Assembly (NCBI GenBank): GCA_035461525.1
Contig: DATHVD010000046.1
Span: 14,636-78,635, forward strand
Direction of reading: 5' to 3'
Origin: Gaiellaceae bacterium
GTDB taxonomy: Bacteria > Actinomycetota > Thermoleophilia > Gaiellales > Gaiellaceae
Length of the DNA stretch: 64,000 nt
Shown here: piece by piece, positions 14,810 through 64,000 of the stretch
Layout: each line of letters opens with the position of its first letter
How positions within the stretch are numbered: the stretch's first letter is position 1
The notes under the pieces: generated by a model
Seen by the model: only the letters and a program-made list of their open reading frames with translations
The model's database searches: none
Told to the model about the DNA's origin: nothing
Made by a program: the position numbers and the translations under genes

Positions 14810-16177
14810 ATGTCCGCCGACCAGCTCCTCGTCACGCTCTGGCGGCGCAAGTGGATCGTCCTCCTGACGGTGCTCGTGGCGACCGTGGCCACCTACGCGG
14901 TCAGTCTCCAGCTCCCGAAGGTGTACTCGGCCGAGGCGACCCTCTTCGTCGGCAACCGCAGCGAGGCGGGGAGCGACTTCGAGGCGATCCAGTCCTCCCA
15001 GGTGCTCGCGCGCACGTACGCCGAGCTGATCCAGAGCCCCAACGTGGCCGCGCGCGTCGCGGAGGAGCTGCCGGGCGGCGAGAGCCCGTCCGAGGTCCTC
15101 GAGCGCACGAGCTTCCGGCCGATCTCGGACACCCAGCTCCTCGTCGTCCAGGCGGAGGGCTCGACCCCGACCGAGGCGGCCGAGCTCGCCAATGCCTACG
15201 CGCAGGGATTCGCCTCCTACGTCGAGACCGAGCTCCCCGCGGAGACGAACGGCGAGGTCACGGTCGCGGACGCGGCGCAGCCTCCGGCCTCGGCCGTCCG
15301 GCCCCGGCCGGCGCTCTACACCGCCGTCATGTTCGTCTTCGCGCTCTTCCTCGGCGCCGGCCTCGCGCTCCTCCGCGACCGGCTCGACACGCGCCTCGGG
15401 AGCGAGGAGGAGCTCGCCAACGAGCTCGGCGTCCCCGTGCTCGCCCGCGTGCCGACGCTCGGCCGGCGCCGGCGCCAGGCGAAGGCGCGCGAGCAACGCT
15501 TCCTCGAGGCCTTCCGCATCCTGCGGACGAACCTCGCCTTCCTCTCGCCCCAACAGCCGCTCGCGAGCGTCGTCCTGGCGAGCGCCTCCCCGGCCGAGGG
15601 GAAGTCCACGTGCGCGATCGCCCTCGCACGCGTCATGGCCGAGCAGGGACGGAGGGTGCTCGTCATCGAGGGCGACCTGCGGCGGCCCGCGCTCGCGCGG
15701 ATGTACGAACTCGACGGTCCCGCGATCAAGGGCCTGACGCACTACCTCGCGCTCGGCTGGCGCTTCGAGGAGGTCGTGCACGAGACGCCGGTGCGGAACG
15801 TCTTCGTCATGCCCGCCGGCGCCGTGCCGCCGAACCCCTCCACGCTCCTCCGCCCGGACGCGCTCAAGAGCCTGCTCGCGGACGCGGCCGAGTGGGCCGA
15901 CTTCGTGATCGTCGACAGCCCGCCGCTCTCCGCCGGGGCCGACGCGACCATCCTCGCGCACGCCGTCGGCACCGTCATCTTCGTCGTCAACCACCGCCGT
16001 GGCTCGCGGACGAAGGTCGCCGCCTCCATCCGCCAGCTGCGGCAGACCGACGCGACCATCGCCGGCCTGATCGTCAACGAGATCGCCGGCGCGGACGACT
16101 CCGACCGCTACTACGGCGAGGTCGACCCGACCGAGGCCCACTCCGGCCCGCTGACGGCGACGCGCCCGCCGGCCTGA
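14810..16177 (+). CDS. polysaccharide co-polymerase (Wzz) fused to a BY-type tyrosine autokinase
   Basis: 455 aa. Has an N-terminal TM segment plus Wzz domain. Kinase motifs are Walker A SPAEGKST, A' VLVIEGDLRRP and B VIVDSPP. The C-terminal Tyr pair is DRYYG. Confidence 0.8.
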   Translation: MSADQLLVTLWRRKWIVLLTVLVATVATYAVSLQLPKVYSAEATLFVGNRSEAGSDFEAIQSSQVLARTYAELIQSPNVAARVAEELPGGESPSEVLERTSFRPISDTQLLVVQAEGSTPTEAAELANAYAQGFASYVETELPAETNGEVTVADAAQPPASAVRPRPALYTAVMFVFALFLGAGLALLRDRLDTRLGSEEELANELGVPVLARVPTLGRRRRQAKAREQRFLEAFRILRTNLAFLSPQQPLASVVLASASPAEGKSTCAIALARVMAEQGRRVLVIEGDLRRPALARMYELDGPAIKGLTHYLALGWRFEEVVHETPVRNVFVMPAGAVPPNPSTLLRPDALKSLLADAAEWADFVIVDSPPLSAGADATILAHAVGTVIFVVNHRRGSRTKVAASIRQLRQTDATIAGLIVNEIAGADDSDRYYGEVDPTEAHSGPLTATRPPA

Positions 16178-59398: not shown

Positions 59399-60583
59399 TC
59401 ACCAGCGCAGGAGCGCGGCGACGCCGTCGGTCTCTGCGAGCGCCTCGGCCGCCTCGCCCTCGAGCGGGGTGACCGCCGCGTCGGTCGCCAGGGCCGCCTC
59501 GACCATGCGCTCGGCGAGGTTCGGCTCCGGCTCCAGGCTCTCCGCGTCGACGCCCGGGGGCACGACCCCCTCCGGCGCGAGCAGCCCGTCCGGGCTGCGG
59601 ACGCCGGCGAGCTCGCGCTCCGGGTCGTAGAGCAGGTGCGAGACGCGGCCCTCGGCGAGCGCCGTGAGGACGTCGGCGACGCCGACCGCGCCGTGCCCGC
59701 CCGCGAGCGCGGAGTCCCGCGCGCGCTCGACGAGCTCCCGCTCGCGCCGCCGCGTCGCCGCCTCGAGCTCGGGCGCCAGCTCGGCCGCGAGCTCCGTTGG
59801 CGCGAGGTCCTCGAGCGTTCGCCCGACGAGCACGACGTCGCCGTTGGCCATCTGGACGTGCTCGGTCACGATCTTGCCCAGGTGGGGGTCGCCGGCGACG
59901 ACGAGGCGGTCCCACCCGTGTTCGGCGACGAGCTGACCCAGGCGCGTTCCCGCGGACTCGAGCAGCCTGACGCGGTGCTCCTCGAGCCGCCGCTCGAACC
60001 GGTCCCGCTGGGGGGCGGACTGCTGTCCGCGTGCGGGGTTGGCCGCGGCAGGCCCCTTCATCTCGCGCCACTCGGACGTGTCCGGGTCGACCGAGAGCGT
60101 GAGCAGCTCGGACGTCACGCCGAGCCGGTGGTCGAGCACCCGCACGGTCGGAAGCGAGACCGCGACGAAGCCCGCCGGGCGCCCCTCGTCGAGGGCCGCC
60201 GCCAGGGGCGCGATGAAGGCCGTCTCGTCGAGGACGACGCGGGTGACGAGCGGCACCTGGAGGGCGATCTGGCGGACCTCGTCCGAGCCGACGGCCGCGA
60301 AGAGCGCGCGCCCGCGGCCGTGCGAAGCGGGGTCGACGAGATCTGCGAGGGCGGGTTGGAGCTCGCCCAGCCGGCGCTCGAGGGCCGTCCACCGCTCCCG
60401 GGGCCCCTGCTCCCTCATGCGCTCGCGCACCTCGCGCAGGCCGTTCTCGACGGCGATCGCCCAGGGCCTGCGCTGCGCGTTCTTCGCGTGCGGGTCGGCG
60501 TCGACGTAGACCGACAGAAAGCCGAGCGGGTCGCGCAGCCGGGCGAGCGAGAGGAGGTCGACCTGCGGCGCGCTCGAAGGCAT
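59399..60583 (-). CDS. bacterial eRF1-like (baeRF/Vms1-type) protein, putative peptidyl-tRNA hydrolase
   Basis: 394 aa. The central loop KGPAAANPARGQQSAPQRDRFERR aligns by eye with eRF1 KKHGRGGQSALRFARLR. The C-terminal GGHGAVGVADVLTALAEGRVSHLL resembles eRF1/Pelota domain 3. Confidence 0.55.
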   Translation of the reverse strand: MPSSAPQVDLLSLARLRDPLGFLSVYVDADPHAKNAQRRPWAIAVENGLREVRERMREQGPRERWTALERRLGELQPALADLVDPASHGRGRALFAAVGSDEVRQIALQVPLVTRVVLDETAFIAPLAAALDEGRPAGFVAVSLPTVRVLDHRLGVTSELLTLSVDPDTSEWREMKGPAAANPARGQQSAPQRDRFERRLEEHRVRLLESAGTRLGQLVAEHGWDRLVVAGDPHLGKIVTEHVQMANGDVVLVGRTLEDLAPTELAAELAPELEAATRRRERELVERARDSALAGGHGAVGVADVLTALAEGRVSHLLYDPERELAGVRSPDGLLAPEGVVPPGVDAESLEPEPNLAERMVEAALATDAAVTPLEGEAAEALAETDGVAALLRW

Positions 60584-60614: not shown

Positions 60615-61577
60615 CTAGTTCCAGCGCATCCCGTCGAGCCGGGAGAGGTCTACGTTCCCGCCGGAGAGGAGGCACGCGACCCGCGTGCCCGCCGGAGCGT
60701 CGACGATGCCCTCGCGGATCGCGGCCACCGTGGCCGCCGCCGCTCCCTCGACCACGAGCTTGCAGCGCGCCATCGTCCAGGCGACGTTGGCGAAGATCGT
60801 CTCGTCGGGCACGATCACGATCTCGTCCACGAAGCGGGAGACGAGCTCGAAGGTGCGCTCGCCGGCGCGCTTGACGCGCAGGCCGTCGATGATCGTGTCG
60901 CAGCGGTCGAGGGTGACGAGCTCGCCGGCCTCGACGCTCCGCTTCATCGCGGGCCCGTCCGAGGACTCGACGCCGACCACGCGGACGCCGGGGCTCGCCT
61001 GCTTCAGGTACGTCGCCACTCCGGAGATCAGCCCGCCGCCGCCGATCGGGACGACGACGACCTCGACCTCGGGCCAGTCGTCGTGCAGCTCGACCCCGAC
61101 GGTGCCCTGGCCGGCGATCAGGTCGACGTCGTCGAACGGGTGCACGTACGTGAGGCCGTCGCGCTCGACCAGCTCGCGCGCCTTCGCGTCCGCCTCGTCC
61201 CAGATCGACCCGTGGAGCACGACCTCGGCGCCGTACCCGCGTGTCGCCTCGATCTTCGCGGGTGTCGCGTTCTCGGCCATGCAGACTGTCGCGCGCACGC
61301 CGAGCATCGCGGCCGCGAGGGCGACGCCCTGCGCATGGTTCCCCGCGGAGGAGCAGACGACCCCCCGGTCGCGCTCCTCCTGCGAGAGGCGCGAGAGCTT
61401 CACGAGCGGGCCGCGGATCTTGTAGGAGCCGGTGCGCTGGAGGCACTCGGCCTTGAGGCGGACGTCGAAGCCGGTCGCGGCGCTCAGCGTGCGGGAGCCG
61501 AGGAGGGGCGTCCTGTGGACGTGCGGCGCGACGAGCGGCATGGCGGCGCGCGAGTCGGGCAGGGTCGTGACGCTCAT
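60615..61577 (-). CDS. threonine ammonia-lyase/serine dehydratase (PLP fold type II, short form)
   Basis: 320 aa. The PLP-Lys motif is GSYKIRG. SAGNHAQG and the Gly-rich loop PIGGGGLISG are present. Confidence 0.85.
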   Translation of the reverse strand: MSVTTLPDSRAAMPLVAPHVHRTPLLGSRTLSAATGFDVRLKAECLQRTGSYKIRGPLVKLSRLSQEERDRGVVCSSAGNHAQGVALAAAMLGVRATVCMAENATPAKIEATRGYGAEVVLHGSIWDEADAKARELVERDGLTYVHPFDDVDLIAGQGTVGVELHDDWPEVEVVVVPIGGGGLISGVATYLKQASPGVRVVGVESSDGPAMKRSVEAGELVTLDRCDTIIDGLRVKRAGERTFELVSRFVDEIVIVPDETIFANVAWTMARCKLVVEGAAAATVAAIREGIVDAPAGTRVACLLSGGNVDLSRLDGMRWN

Positions 61578-61658
61578 GGCTCCTCCAGGTCGGTTGCAGG
61601 GAGCCTACGGCGTGGGCGCCGTTCGCGCGAGGGTGCGCCCCGCGCTAGTCTCCGCGCG

Positions 61659-62144
61659 ATGGCCGTCGACATGTTCCTGAGGATCGACGAGATTCCCGGC
61701 GGCAGCACGGACGCCCAGCACAAGGGCGAGATCGACGTGCTCGGCTACAGCTTCGGCGTCACCCAGACCGGCACGCTCGCGACGGGCGGCGCAGGGGCGG
61801 GCGCCGGCGCGGGCAAGCCGAGCTTCGCGGACCTCGTCGTCAGCTGTTCGACGAGCAAGGCCTCTCCGGAGCTCCTGGTCGCCTGCGCGTCCGGCCGGCA
61901 CCTGAAGTCGGCGGTGCTCACCTGCCGCCGAAGAGACCCCAAGCCGCACGAGTTCAGCCACATCGAGCTGGGCGACGTGATCATCACGAGCTACCAGTCG
62001 GCCGGGTCCGACGGCGAGGTCCCGGTCGACCAGATCTCCCTCGCCTACGGGATGATCCGGACGACGTACTCGGGAGTCAACAAGAGCGGGAAGCCGAAGC
62101 CGCCCGTGACGGGCGGCTGGGACCTGAGGAACACCAAGGCCTAG
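61659..62144 (+). CDS. hcp: Hcp1-family type VI secretion tube protein homolog (orphan)
   Basis: 161 aa. MAVDMFLRIDEIPG.S.D..HKGEIDVL.YSFGV.Q.G......G.GAGK....DL.......KASPELL.AC.SG.H...A.LT.R, then ...GGWDLR. This is collinear with Pseudomonas Hcp1 as I recall it (MAVDMFIKIGDVKGES.D..H..EIDVL.WSWG). Confidence 0.8.
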   Translation: MAVDMFLRIDEIPGGSTDAQHKGEIDVLGYSFGVTQTGTLATGGAGAGAGAGKPSFADLVVSCSTSKASPELLVACASGRHLKSAVLTCRRRDPKPHEFSHIELGDVIITSYQSAGSDGEVPVDQISLAYGMIRTTYSGVNKSGKPKPPVTGGWDLRNTKA

Positions 62145-62148
62145 GTCG

Positions 62149-63183
62149 ATGGCCGGCGCCGTGCGCGTGCGCTTCGCGCCGAGCCCGACGGGGTCGCTGC
62201 ACCTCGGAGGCGCGCTGACGGCGGTGGCGAACCGGCGCTTCGCGGACAGCCACGGCGGGGCCCTCGTCCTGCGGATCGACGACACCGACGAAGCGCGTCG
62301 CGTGCCCAGGGCGGAGGAGGGCATCCTCGAGGATCTGCGCTGGCTCGGCATCGCGTGGGACGAGGGGCCCGTGCGCCAGAGCGAGCGGGCGGAGCGCCAC
62401 CGGGAGGCGGCGCGGGAGATCGGCGAGGTGGACGACGAGGGGGCGCTGCGCTTCCGCGGCGTCACGCTTCTCCGCGCCGACGGGCGGCCGACGTACCACC
62501 TGGCCTCGGTGGTGGACGACCTCGACCTCGGGATCACGCACGTGATCCGCGGGAAGGACCTCCTGCCGGCGACGGCGGTGCAAGAGGAGATCGCCCGCGC
62601 GCTGGGCGTCGAGCCGCCCGCGTACGTCCACCACGGTCTCCTCGTCGGCGAGGACGGGCGCAAGCTCGGAAAGCGCGTGCGCTCGGCTTCGGTCGCCGGC
62701 CTGCGCGAGCTGGGGATCCCGCCGGAGGCCGCGCGCGCCTACCTGGAGGAGCTCGACCTGCCGCGGGGCGACGTCCGCCTCGACGAGTCCCGGCTGCGCC
62801 GGCTCGCGGTGGAGGCGCTCGGCCGGCTCTCCGACGAGGAGCTCGCCGCGAGGGCCGGCGCCCCCGCCCGCTTCGGCCCGGCTCTCCGCGGCGCCCGCGA
62901 CCTCGCCGAGGCGCGCGCGACCGCCGCGAGCCTCGCAGAGCCGCCGGCCCCGGCACCGGCGCGCTCCCCGGAGACCTTGGAGCGCTTTCGCGAGCTCCGC
63001 GAGGCAGCGCCGGAGGAGCTGACGAAGGAGGAGGCGAAGACGATCGTTCGCGAGCTGAAGGCCGTCGGCGGCGACCTTCGCGCCCTCCGCATCGTCCTCA
63101 CGGGCGCCGAGCGGGGCCCGGAGCTCTGGGCAGTGCTCGTCGCGCTTCCGTCGGCGGAAGCGCTTCGGCGCGTCAGCGGCTGA
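62149..63183 (+). CDS. shortened glutamate--tRNA ligase family protein (GluRS/GluQ-RS-like)
   Basis: 344 aa. Contains RFAPSPTGSLHLGG (HIGH), R.DDTD, PTYHLASVVDD and a KLGKR (KMSKS-like) motif. The C-terminal LR..LTG...GPELW.VL..L motif of GluRS is present. It is about 130 aa shorter than canonical GluRS. Confidence 0.7.
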   Translation: MAGAVRVRFAPSPTGSLHLGGALTAVANRRFADSHGGALVLRIDDTDEARRVPRAEEGILEDLRWLGIAWDEGPVRQSERAERHREAAREIGEVDDEGALRFRGVTLLRADGRPTYHLASVVDDLDLGITHVIRGKDLLPATAVQEEIARALGVEPPAYVHHGLLVGEDGRKLGKRVRSASVAGLRELGIPPEAARAYLEELDLPRGDVRLDESRLRRLAVEALGRLSDEELAARAGAPARFGPALRGARDLAEARATAASLAEPPAPAPARSPETLERFRELREAAPEELTKEEAKTIVRELKAVGGDLRALRIVLTGAERGPELWAVLVALPSAEALRRVSG

Positions 63184-64000
63184 GCTCGGGCTGGAGCTCC
63201 CGTAGTGTTGCCAGGAACGCGTGCACGGCTCCGCCCGGCGCGCCGCGGTCACGACGGCGGATCGCCACGATCTGGCGTCGCACCGGCTCGGCGTCCTCCA
63301 CGTCGACCTCGACCAGCAGGCCGGCCTCGAGCTCCTCGGCGACGGCGGTGTGGGGGAGGAGCGCGACGCCGAACCCCTCCTGCACCATCTTCTTCGCCGC
63401 GTCGATGTTGTCGAGCTCCATCACGCCGGTGGGCTGGACGCCGGCGCCGCGGAAGAGGGCGTTGGTCAGCTCGGTGTAGCTCGACGTGCGGTCGAAGAGG
63501 ACGAGCTGCTCGGGGCCGATCTCCTCGAGGCGGATGCTCCGACGCGAGGCGAAACGGTGCCGCGGCTCGGCGACGAGGATGAGCCGGTCCTCGTAGAGCG
63601 GCGTGATCGAGATGTCCGGGTGCCGGAGCTCGCGCACGAGCCCGAGCTCCACCTGCTCGCGGAGGACGAGGTCGAGCACCTCCTCCGAGTGGCCCGTCTT
63701 CACGCTCACGCTCACGCGCGGGTGGCCGACCGCGAAGCGCTTGAGGATGGTCGGGAGCACGTAGGTCGAGACGGCCGGCGCCGCTCCCAGGGCCAGGCGC
63801 CCGGCACCGCCGCGCTCGAAGGCGTTCACGATCCTCCGCCCATCGTGGACGCTGTCGAGTGCCTTCACCGCATGCGGGAGGAAGACCTCGCCGGCCTCCG
63901 TGAGGCGCATCCCGCGCGGCGTGCGCACGAAGAGCTGGGCACCGAGGTCGGCCTCGAGCCTCTGGATCCGGGCAGTCAGCGCCGGCTGCGTGACGAAGAG
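63173..64000 (-). CDS. LysR family transcriptional regulator (5' end beyond the window)
   Basis: The minus strand at the window edge reads FVTQPALTARIQRLEADLGAQLFVRTPRGMRLTEAG (LysR HTH). A LysR substrate-binding domain follows. The gene is partial. Confidence 0.8.
   Translation of the reverse strand, partial: LFVTQPALTARIQRLEADLGAQLFVRTPRGMRLTEAGEVFLPHAVKALDSVHDGRRIVNAFERGGAGRLALGAAPAVSTYVLPTILKRFAVGHPRVSVSVKTGHSEEVLDLVLREQVELGLVRELRHPDISITPLYEDRLILVAEPRHRFASRRSIRLEEIGPEQLVLFDRTSSYTELTNALFRGAGVQPTGVMELDNIDAAKKMVQEGFGVALLPHTAVAEELEAGLLVEVDVEDAEPVRRQIVAIRRRDRGAPGGAVHAFLATLRELQPELSR

Follow-up and report, generated by a model that had tools for sequence, protein, structure and literature searches.

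An Hcp1-type gene without neighbouring type VI secretion genes at a conserved chromosomal site in Gaiellales

The stretch of DNA analysed here (64,000 nucleotides of contig DATHVD010000046.1, hereafter the window) carries near its right-hand end a gene of the hcp (tssD) family, which encodes a homolog of the tube protein of type VI secretion systems (T6SS). It is followed on the same strand by a gene for a minimised paralogue of glutamyl-tRNA synthetase (GluRS). A divergent gene of the PALP family lies to the left of this pair and a convergent LysR-family gene to the right (Table 1). The identical protein is recorded at NCBI as 'type VI secretion system tube protein Hcp [Gaiellaceae bacterium]', from a 79-kb contig of a metagenome-assembled genome (MAG); Gaiellaceae belong to the class Thermoleophilia of the Actinomycetota. 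Since the gene had already been annotated automatically as Hcp, its family membership is not new. The synteny of the locus across Gaiellales and the methyltransferase partners of Hcp in sister lineages went unnoticed in the initial annotation, which was made from the window sequence.

The Hcp protein and its gene

The open reading frame (ORF) was preferred over every overlapping frame by a gene caller based on GC content at third codon positions (GC3), and its product starts with MAVDMF and ends with GGWDLRNTKA. Residues 6–137 match the entire Pfam profile T6SS_HCP (PF05638, positions 1–129 of 129) with 112.1 bits (cutoff 23.5; E=2.9e-32). A phmmer search of the PDB aligns residues 1–158 collinearly with Pseudomonas aeruginosa Hcp1 (1y12; E=3e-26), to which the protein is 35% identical by BLASTP. 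The AlphaFold2 (AF2) monomer model, calculated with 51 homologues, has a pLDDT of 89.7 and a pTM of 0.84, and shows the Hcp fold, in which two sheets form a β-barrel that is joined by one helix and an extended loop. Foldseek places only Hcp structures among the top 50 PDB matches of this model, the best being 1y12 (TM 0.88, rmsd 1.8 Å). By membership and fold, the window protein is a genuine tube protein (TssD) of the Hcp1 subfamily; profile search and predicted structure both agree with the initial description of a 161-residue Hcp homologue running from MAVDMF to GGWDLR. Its score against the NCBIfam subfamily model TIGR03344 (VI_effect_Hcp1) is 40.9 bits, below the cutoff of 58.9.

Identity is 35–48% to Hcps embedded in T6SS clusters of Gemmatimonadota, Acidobacteriota, Planctomycetota and Proteobacteria, and only 17–19% to the Hcp structures of Vibrio cholerae and enteroaggregative Escherichia coli, which places the window protein in the Hcp1-like subfamily rather than on an ancient separate branch. 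The residues conserved across the whole family are retained. Conserved positions are nearly identical in Hcps with and without linked T6SS genes, with a marked difference at five columns only. The glycine/alanine-rich extended loop GGAGAGAGAGK (residues 43–53), which exceeds that of almost every relative by three residues, falls within the part of the model that has the lowest confidence. Neither a signal peptide nor a C-terminal extension was found in the window protein.

No Shine-Dalgarno sequence precedes hcp, and a scan with the sigma-70 consensus gave no promoter on the forward strand. Of 18 syntenic Gaiellales loci, 17 have a TAnnnT box (TACAGT, TAGAGT or TAGTCT) 7–10 nt ahead of the ATG or GTG, in a spacer that has otherwise diverged; the box was seen solely by comparing loci. 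We infer that this box is the −10 element of the hcp promoter. Judging from the actinobacterial −10 consensus and its distance to the transcription start, the hcp mRNA would be leaderless or nearly so. The ORF is intact and full-length, with a conserved start, in about 25 syntenic loci at which the neighbouring genes have dS values of 0.3–0.8; the sole exception is a probable frameshift in locus L062. Pairwise dN/dS values (ω, NG86 method) lie between 0.06 and 0.5 in most Hcp pairs, values that place the gene below neutrality. The putative −10 box, the operon spacing described below, the intact ORFs and ω values below 1 support the earlier view that the gene is expressed and not a relic. The GC3 of hcp (0.957) is that of its host (window mean 0.949 ± 0.020), so that it is not a recent import.

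The Gaiellales locus and its T6SS gene context

Sixty-eight genes were called in the window and each was compared with Pfam. None of these annotated genes encodes TssB, TssC, TssE, TssF, TssG, TssK, TssL, TssM, TssJ, VgrG, PAAR or a ClpV-type ATPase, and none belongs to a sheath, baseplate, spike or phage-tail family, or to a tube family other than Hcp. The only Clp ATPase is the housekeeping ClpC, within a clpC-radA-disA-carD-ispD-ispF block. The window likewise holds no cluster of sheath, gp19-type tube, gp25/gp6/gp7-like baseplate, spike and AAA ATPase genes, as would mark an extracellular contractile injection system (eCIS) or another phage-tail-like particle.

To place the gene among its relatives, 80 hcp loci with flanks of ±10 kb were collected by scanning a single genome for each GTDB species, and their genes were called, clustered by BLASTP and named via Pfam (loci are cited below by L numbers). 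The view of T6SS genes therefore covers the 64-kb window and ±10 kb around related Hcps. T6SS core genes are absent from all 43 Actinomycetota and Chloroflexota loci (810 kb) and present in 32 of 41 loci from diderm phyla (Fisher p=2e-15). A tblastn search of the 43 loci at E<1e-4 also found no T6SS core gene, and the co-occurrence of tssA-C, tssE-G, tssJ-M, clpV and vgrG, usually in a cluster, that defines the T6SS of subtype i (T6SS-i) is seen neither there nor in the window. No vgrG, PAAR or effector-immunity pair adjoins Hcp in any of the 43. The diderm loci come from Gemmatimonadota, Acidobacteriota, Planctomycetota, Verrucomicrobiota, Nitrospirota and Proteobacteria, and typically read tssB-tssC-hcp-tssE-tssF-tssG-clpV, accompanied by tssA/K/L and tagJ. 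The lack of TssB/C, VgrG, TssK/F/G, ClpV, PAAR and phage-tail genes near hcp, reported initially for the window, thus holds at the level of Pfam throughout its 64 kb, and the gene is a local orphan there as in all 43 related loci. In the searchable literature we found no report of Hcp or a T6SS in Thermoleophilia or other monoderm actinobacteria.

The locus itself is conserved. About 23 Gaiellales loci, some on contigs longer than 1 Mb, share the order PALP (reverse), Hcp, GluRS-like, LysR (reverse), malate synthase, isocitrate lyase and cysS, followed by genes for a SpoU methylase, YacP and a sigma factor; carD-ispD-ispF lies upstream. All four contigs (0.26–1.16 Mb) that were reached through the GluRS-like protein carry Hcp just upstream of it, the same holds for three short contigs from the closest relatives of the window, and an identical Hcp with the same neighbours occurs in four further independent assemblies. 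The syntenic Gaiellales Hcps form a single clade in a neighbour-joining tree (81% bootstrap). In L031, L057 and L092, other genes separate Hcp from the GluRS-like gene and hcp persists: L031 and L057, both from Gaiellales, have a methyltransferase of DUF7059-MTS-DUF7782 architecture in this position, and L092 has a 231-residue gene unrelated to methyltransferases.

The spacing between the hcp stop codon and the ATG of the GluRS-like gene is exactly 4 nt (GTCG), as first stated, and in 12 loci this start lies 3–14 nt past the hcp stop. Such spacing fits co-transcription, and the two genes are probably transcribed together. The GluRS-like protein is far more conserved than Hcp (74–87% identity across Gaiellales, where its length is 340–345 residues). 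Its scores fall below the NCBIfam equivalog cutoffs for both gltX (212.5 bits, cutoff 289.95) and GluQRS (191.6 bits, cutoff 250). It does not possess a complete catalytic domain with acceptor-binding insertion, its Pfam and PDB matches being split; alignment to GluRS 2o5r indicates that GluRS residues ∼109–194, the acceptor-binding insertion of ∼85 residues, are missing, along with ∼100 residues of the anticodon-binding region. The HIGH-like motif HLGG and the KMSKS-like motif KLGKR are retained. Its AF2 model (pLDDT 90.9) is closest by Foldseek to bacterial GluRS (TMq 0.86, TMt 0.65), with GluQRS at a TMq of about 0.5. It may be either the housekeeping GluRS or a specialised, non-canonical ligase.

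The PALP gene, a member of gene cluster 11 that adjoins hcp in 14 loci, resembles threonine and serine dehydratases and scores 368 bits against TIGR01127, slightly under the cutoff of 378.75. The two flanking genes named at the outset, a threonine dehydratase gene and a GluRS-like gene, are both found. The LysR-family gene (cluster 10, in 15 loci) runs off the window end, and its two domains were read from the identical contig L001. Near the hcp locus, Rfam and ARAGORN gave no credible T-box, riboswitch or tRNA. Two genes upstream of hcp lies a gene of the bacterial eRF1-like baeRF family 5/10, which is not conserved across the other syntenic loci.

The remainder of the window begins with coaX, greA and lysS and an exopolysaccharide cluster (family 2 glycosyltransferase, Wzx, Wzz/BY-kinase, Wzy and sugar transferase), continues with clpC-radA-disA-carD-ispD-PHP-ispF and a two-component system, and then with amidohydrolases, oxidoreductases and permeases up to the baeRF-family gene, PALP, Hcp, the GluRS-like gene and LysR. 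The Wzz/BY-kinase is present with no Pfam match to Wza/Poly_export in the window, and an 85-residue protein with a signal peptide, a glycine-rich middle, an LPFTG sortase-type signal, a hydrophobic tail and an RR end is the one clear case of an LPxTG-type signal. These features agree with what had been proposed, and the actinobacterial host is confirmed by the Gaiellaceae MAG record of the exact protein together with the core synteny and the LPxTG signal. The window also encodes a 1179-residue fusion of an adenylate/guanylate cyclase domain, a STAND-like AAA_16 domain and an extracellular solute-binding family 5 domain. Gaiella occulta, the one member of the order in culture, gives a Gram-negative stain; in its genome paper, an electron microscopy figure legend describes a thin peptidoglycan layer and a cell membrane, and neither 'outer membrane' nor 'type VI' is used as a term (PMC6741124). 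The protein search returned more than 1000 Hcp homologues, those with a named source being from Gaiellaceae or Solirubrobacteraceae. A further protein search, for a cultured strain carrying the gene, gave uncultured metagenome sequences only.

Table 1. Coordinates of features in the window and of genes at related hcp loci.
Feature	Position or loci	Strand	Basis
hcp (tssD-family) gene, 161 aa plus stop, ATG to TAG	61659..62144	+	Pfam PF05638, PDB, AF2, Foldseek
Extended loop of Hcp, residues 43–53	61785..61817		
Putative −10 hexamer TAGTCT (TAnnnT), 7 nt upstream of hcp ATG	61646..61651	+	Locus comparison
Minimised GluRS-family paralogue, 344 aa	62149..63183	+	Pfam tRNA-synt_1c, E=7e-49
PALP, pyridoxal phosphate-dependent threonine/serine dehydratase-like gene, left neighbour, divergent from hcp	60615..61577	−	Pfam PALP, E=5e-80
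LysR-family regulator, right neighbour, convergent with GluRS-like gene	63173..64000	−	HTH_1 + LysR_substrate
baeRF family 5/10 gene	59399..60583	−	
LPFTG protein, 85 aa	25383..25640	+	
Wzz/BY-kinase	14810..16177		Pfam
Cyclase-AAA_16-solute-binding fusion, 1179 aa	3534..7073	−	
MT2 methyltransferase just downstream of Hcp	L006, L020, L023, L028, L034, L046, L056, L061, L066, L067, L072, L083, L088		
MT2 homologues inside T6SS clusters	L024, L027, L044, L045, L054, L076		
DUF7059-MTS-DUF7782 gene adjoining Hcp	L021, L031, L037, L038, L041, L049, L057, L081		
DUF7059-MTS-DUF7782 gene upstream of tssB	L024		
Second Hcp with C-terminal extension	L021:7619-8704	+	
Dirigent-like genes	L021:6736-7113, L038:9614-9985, L041:9462-9998, L037:9494-9991		

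Candidate methyltransferase partners in sister lineages

Outside the Gaiellales locus, orphan Hcps are accompanied by two families of S-adenosylmethionine (SAM)-dependent methyltransferases. The first, here termed MT2, is PKMT-like, 430–530 residues long, and combines Methyltransf_12/25, MethyTransf_Reg and PKMT_2nd domains. It lies directly downstream of Hcp on the same strand, at a distance of 4–176 nt, in all 14 monoderm-lineage loci that have it, where its length is 430–500 residues; these come from Solirubrobacteraceae, Thermoleophilaceae, Paraconexibacteraceae and MAGs labelled Actinomycetes. The MT2-linked core Hcps form a clade with 98% neighbour-joining bootstrap. The second family, HemK/PrmA-like and ∼490 residues long, consists of DUF7059, an MTS domain with an NPPY motif, and DUF7782. 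It adjoins Hcp in other Thermoleophilia, in an Ilumatobacteraceae MAG (Acidimicrobiia) and in three Chloroflexota MAGs, and is often encoded on the opposite strand, convergent with Hcp.

Both families have clear homologues within diderm T6SS clusters. MT2 is 33–46% identical to genes in T6SS clusters of Bradyrhizobium, Paludisphaera, Planctomyces, an Acidobacteriota MAG and a Gemmatimonadaceae MAG; the Bradyrhizobium homologues (33–40% identity) sit at the end of their clusters. When generic ABC and Clp ATPases and single-locus matches of five unannotated clusters are set aside, the two methyltransferase families are the only genes besides Hcp that recur in both the orphan and the T6SS locus sets. 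These recurrent partners are the strongest functional lead; the window locus itself lacks them. The T6SS cluster of Bradyrhizobium sp. LmicA16 encodes Tsb1, which according to a review (PMC10879055, summarising Tighilt et al. 2022) has a methyltransferase domain, no known function and a mild phenotype in symbiosis. MT2 is possibly the family to which Tsb1 belongs.

Several related loci show features of their own. In a Chloroflexota MAG (L021), a second Hcp directly follows the first and bears a C-terminal extension of ∼210 residues, for which no Pfam match was found; it is an 'evolved Hcp' in a phylum that is not known to have a T6SS. Small dirigent/allene-oxide-cyclase-like proteins are encoded directly upstream of Hcp in Chloroflexota and in one Thermoleophilia locus, and the one in L037 carries a twin-arginine signal. 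Hcp homologues with no T6SS genes nearby also occur in the cyanobacterial L047 (Leptolyngbyales), in L050 and L075 (Nitrospira), and in L090, a MAG labelled Nitrososphaera, an archaeon, which may be mis-binned.

Phage, plasmid and defence-system origins were considered and rejected. Matches in a phage collection by tblastn are short enterobacterial fragments of 25–33% identity, and IMG/VR gave four distant loci only. Among the 31 plasmid matches listed of 95, all are from Proteobacteria or Acidobacteriota apart from one 'uncultured bacterium' record, and none is from Actinomycetota or Chloroflexota. PADLOC defence families match neither Hcp nor the GluRS-like protein; for the two methyltransferases from related loci, the sole match is to a generic methyltransferase domain within one PADLOC model.

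Origin, possible roles and comparison with known systems

The interpretation that we somewhat favour is that an Hcp1-type gene, transferred in the distant past, has been kept in Gaiellales as a T6SS-independent ring scaffold, chaperone or adaptor. The gene would have been acquired by horizontal transfer from the T6SS-i of a diderm soil bacterium and then inherited vertically at one chromosomal site between ispF and cysS, its product no longer being part of a type VI machine. Across the orphan loci as a whole, the simplest account would be that a fragment bearing hcp and a methyltransferase gene left diderm T6SS clusters once or a few times, long ago, and was then inherited vertically. In Gaiellales, hcp would be transcribed from its own conserved −10 promoter, probably leaderless, at the head of an operon whose other gene encodes the GluRS paralogue. 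Since the fold and the family-wide conserved residues are kept, hexameric Hcp rings are most likely still formed by the window protein. Within the cell, such a ring may serve a partner protein as scaffold, chaperone or adaptor; gene order suggests that this partner is one of the two SAM methyltransferases in Solirubrobacterales, Thermoleophilaceae, Acidimicrobiia and Chloroflexota.

Several observations weigh against this interpretation. The portion of this genome in view is 64–79 kb, and the reading of T6SS absence is limited to it. A conservation profile that is unchanged between orphan and T6SS-linked Hcps is also what would be expected if a tube and sheath partner still existed. Between the window and its three closest relatives, ω is 0.53–0.69 for Hcp, compared to 0.17–0.39 for the GluRS-like gene and 0.02–0.2 for PALP; the dN of Hcp in this subclade is 2–3 times that of the neighbouring genes. 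The same subclade has GGS in place of GES and SFG in place of SWG at near-invariant motifs, and these substitutions, together with the longer loop, are compatible with relaxed constraint. A tblastn search found no methyltransferase, whether in the window or at the syntenic Gaiellales loci, so that the inference of a partner is borrowed from sister lineages. A phylogenetic placement had been proposed as a test of horizontal transfer. It yielded the supported Gaiellales clade, but nodes deeper than the two supported clades have bootstrap values of only 7–29%, too low to fix how many transfers took place and in which direction.

The fast evolution of the window subclade is what one would see if hcp were a functionless relic of an old transfer, drifting and intact merely through co-transcription ahead of the GluRS-like gene; the substituted near-invariant residues and the subthreshold TIGR03344 score point the same way. 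We regard this as unlikely. The ORF and its start are preserved in all of the roughly 25 syntenic loci but L062, ω is 0.06–0.46 elsewhere in the Hcp family, and the AF2 model is confident. The ω values of the subclade are themselves inflated, since the NG86 dS of hcp is below that of its neighbours. Moreover, hcp persists in the three loci where other genes intervene before the GluRS-like gene. A distinctly unlikely explanation is that hcp is a satellite of a T6SS or another contractile injection system encoded elsewhere in the genome. Its appeal lies in the small part of the genome in view, in the purifying selection on hcp and the shared conserved positions, and in the fact that hcp often lies away from the main locus in T6SS-bearing bacteria (PMC4793230). 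The contrast between 0 of 43 and 32 of 41 loci in or near a T6SS cluster speaks against it, as does the site, a vertically inherited housekeeping position and not an island. Main clusters usually have an hcp of their own, vgrG, PAAR and effector-immunity pairs adjoin none of the 43 orphan loci, and the literature search gave no T6SS report for Thermoleophilia. The membrane complex of T6SS-i spans the outer membrane, and eCIS tubes are of the Afp/gp19 type and not PF05638; both facts count against a satellite gene.

Export of Hcp by a route other than the T6SS, as a toxin-domain carrier or as a surface or extracellular tube of monoderm cells, appears very improbable. The extended second Hcp of L021 is reminiscent of Hcp-toxin fusions, proteins of the dirigent type with Tat signals lie near some orphan Hcps, and the rapid change of the window subclade resembles that of conflict genes. 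The window Hcp has neither signal peptide nor extension, however; the L021 extension belongs to no Pfam family, export or immunity-like genes are not conserved beside Hcp, and the PADLOC comparison did not connect either protein of the operon with defence. An artefact is effectively refuted and has a negligible chance of being correct: the contig would be mis-binned or chimeric, from a Gram-negative organism, or hcp would be the tail-tube gene of a prophage or plasmid. The source is a MAG and PHROG 27303 matches the window Hcp, but the four further assemblies agree, the same gene order occurs in contigs of 0.1–1.4 Mb labelled Actinomycetes or Gaiellaceae, and the contig has actinobacterial core genes and an hcp of host-typical GC3.

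A bolder reading, which we consider doubtful, is that Hcp and a dedicated modifying enzyme constitute an autonomous T6SS-independent module that spread into the monoderm-type Thermoleophilia, Acidimicrobiia and Chloroflexota. In most lineages the enzyme would be the PKMT-like or the HemK/PrmA-like methyltransferase, with the minimised GluRS replacing it in Gaiellales. If so, the Hcp ring could be the substrate of the enzyme, or an adaptor presenting substrates to it, and the same partnership in diderm T6SS clusters (Tsb1-like genes) would point to a side of T6SS biology that has gone unrecognised. More radically, these monoderm lineages might employ Hcp in an export device of a new kind.

The presence of Hcp is taken to mark an active T6SS, and it is counted in this sense in metagenomic surveys. 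Gaiellales, an entire order of Actinobacteria abundant in soil, and related lineages have a conserved Hcp that is apparently expressed and has no T6SS genes in its surroundings, so that in soil data their hcp reads would be misread as T6SS activity. The Gaiellales case is a clean natural test of what the Hcp ring may do independently of a T6SS, and singles out candidate partners in the two methyltransferase families and the unusual minimised GluRS. The lineage-wide, syntenic conservation in Gaiellales of an Hcp with no T6SS genes nearby, its operon with a minimised GluRS, and a methyltransferase partnership shared with diderm T6SS clusters were not found in the searchable literature.

Among known systems, the Afp/PVC-like eCIS are phage-tail-related tube systems that do occur in monoderm Actinobacteria. 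They are encoded by clusters of 15–20 genes with a gp19/Afp1-type tube, sheath, baseplate and AAA ATPase; the 64 kb contain no such cluster, and the window tube protein is of the PF05638 type. The GluRS-like protein shares with canonical GluRS and GluQRS (YadB) the class I Rossmann catalytic core with HLGG and KLGKR motifs. Canonical GluRS is about 470–490 residues long, compared to 344 in the window protein, which is missing the insertion and part of the anticodon-binding domain. GluQRS, unlike the window protein, keeps the acceptor insertion and is without the C-terminal helical domain. Tsb1 resembles MT2 in being a SAM-methyltransferase gene product encoded within a T6SS cluster, and may be equivalent to it; the window and syntenic Gaiellales loci carry no such gene.

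The hcp islands of Proteobacteria, orphan or satellite, offer a parallel in gene arrangement, a stand-alone hcp away from the tssBC cluster (PMC4793230). Their genomes encode a complete T6SS, and vgrG, PAAR or effector-immunity genes are usually present; these genes are not found near the 43 loci described here, and the site of the window hcp is a vertically inherited housekeeping region. The closest characterised protein is Hcp1 (PA0085, TssD) of the P. aeruginosa H1-T6SS, which is encoded in a T6SS cluster, stacks as a tube within the TssBC sheath and is secreted. The window Hcp differs in its setting, with no T6SS gene within 64 kb, a host phylum of monoderm type and a GluRS paralogue as operon partner, and in detail, with GGS and SFG for GES and SWG and a loop longer by three residues. 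It matches Hcp1 in length, in collinear sequence from MAVDMF to GWD/N, in the predicted barrel-plus-helix fold, and in the glycine-rich extended loop ending in GAGK.

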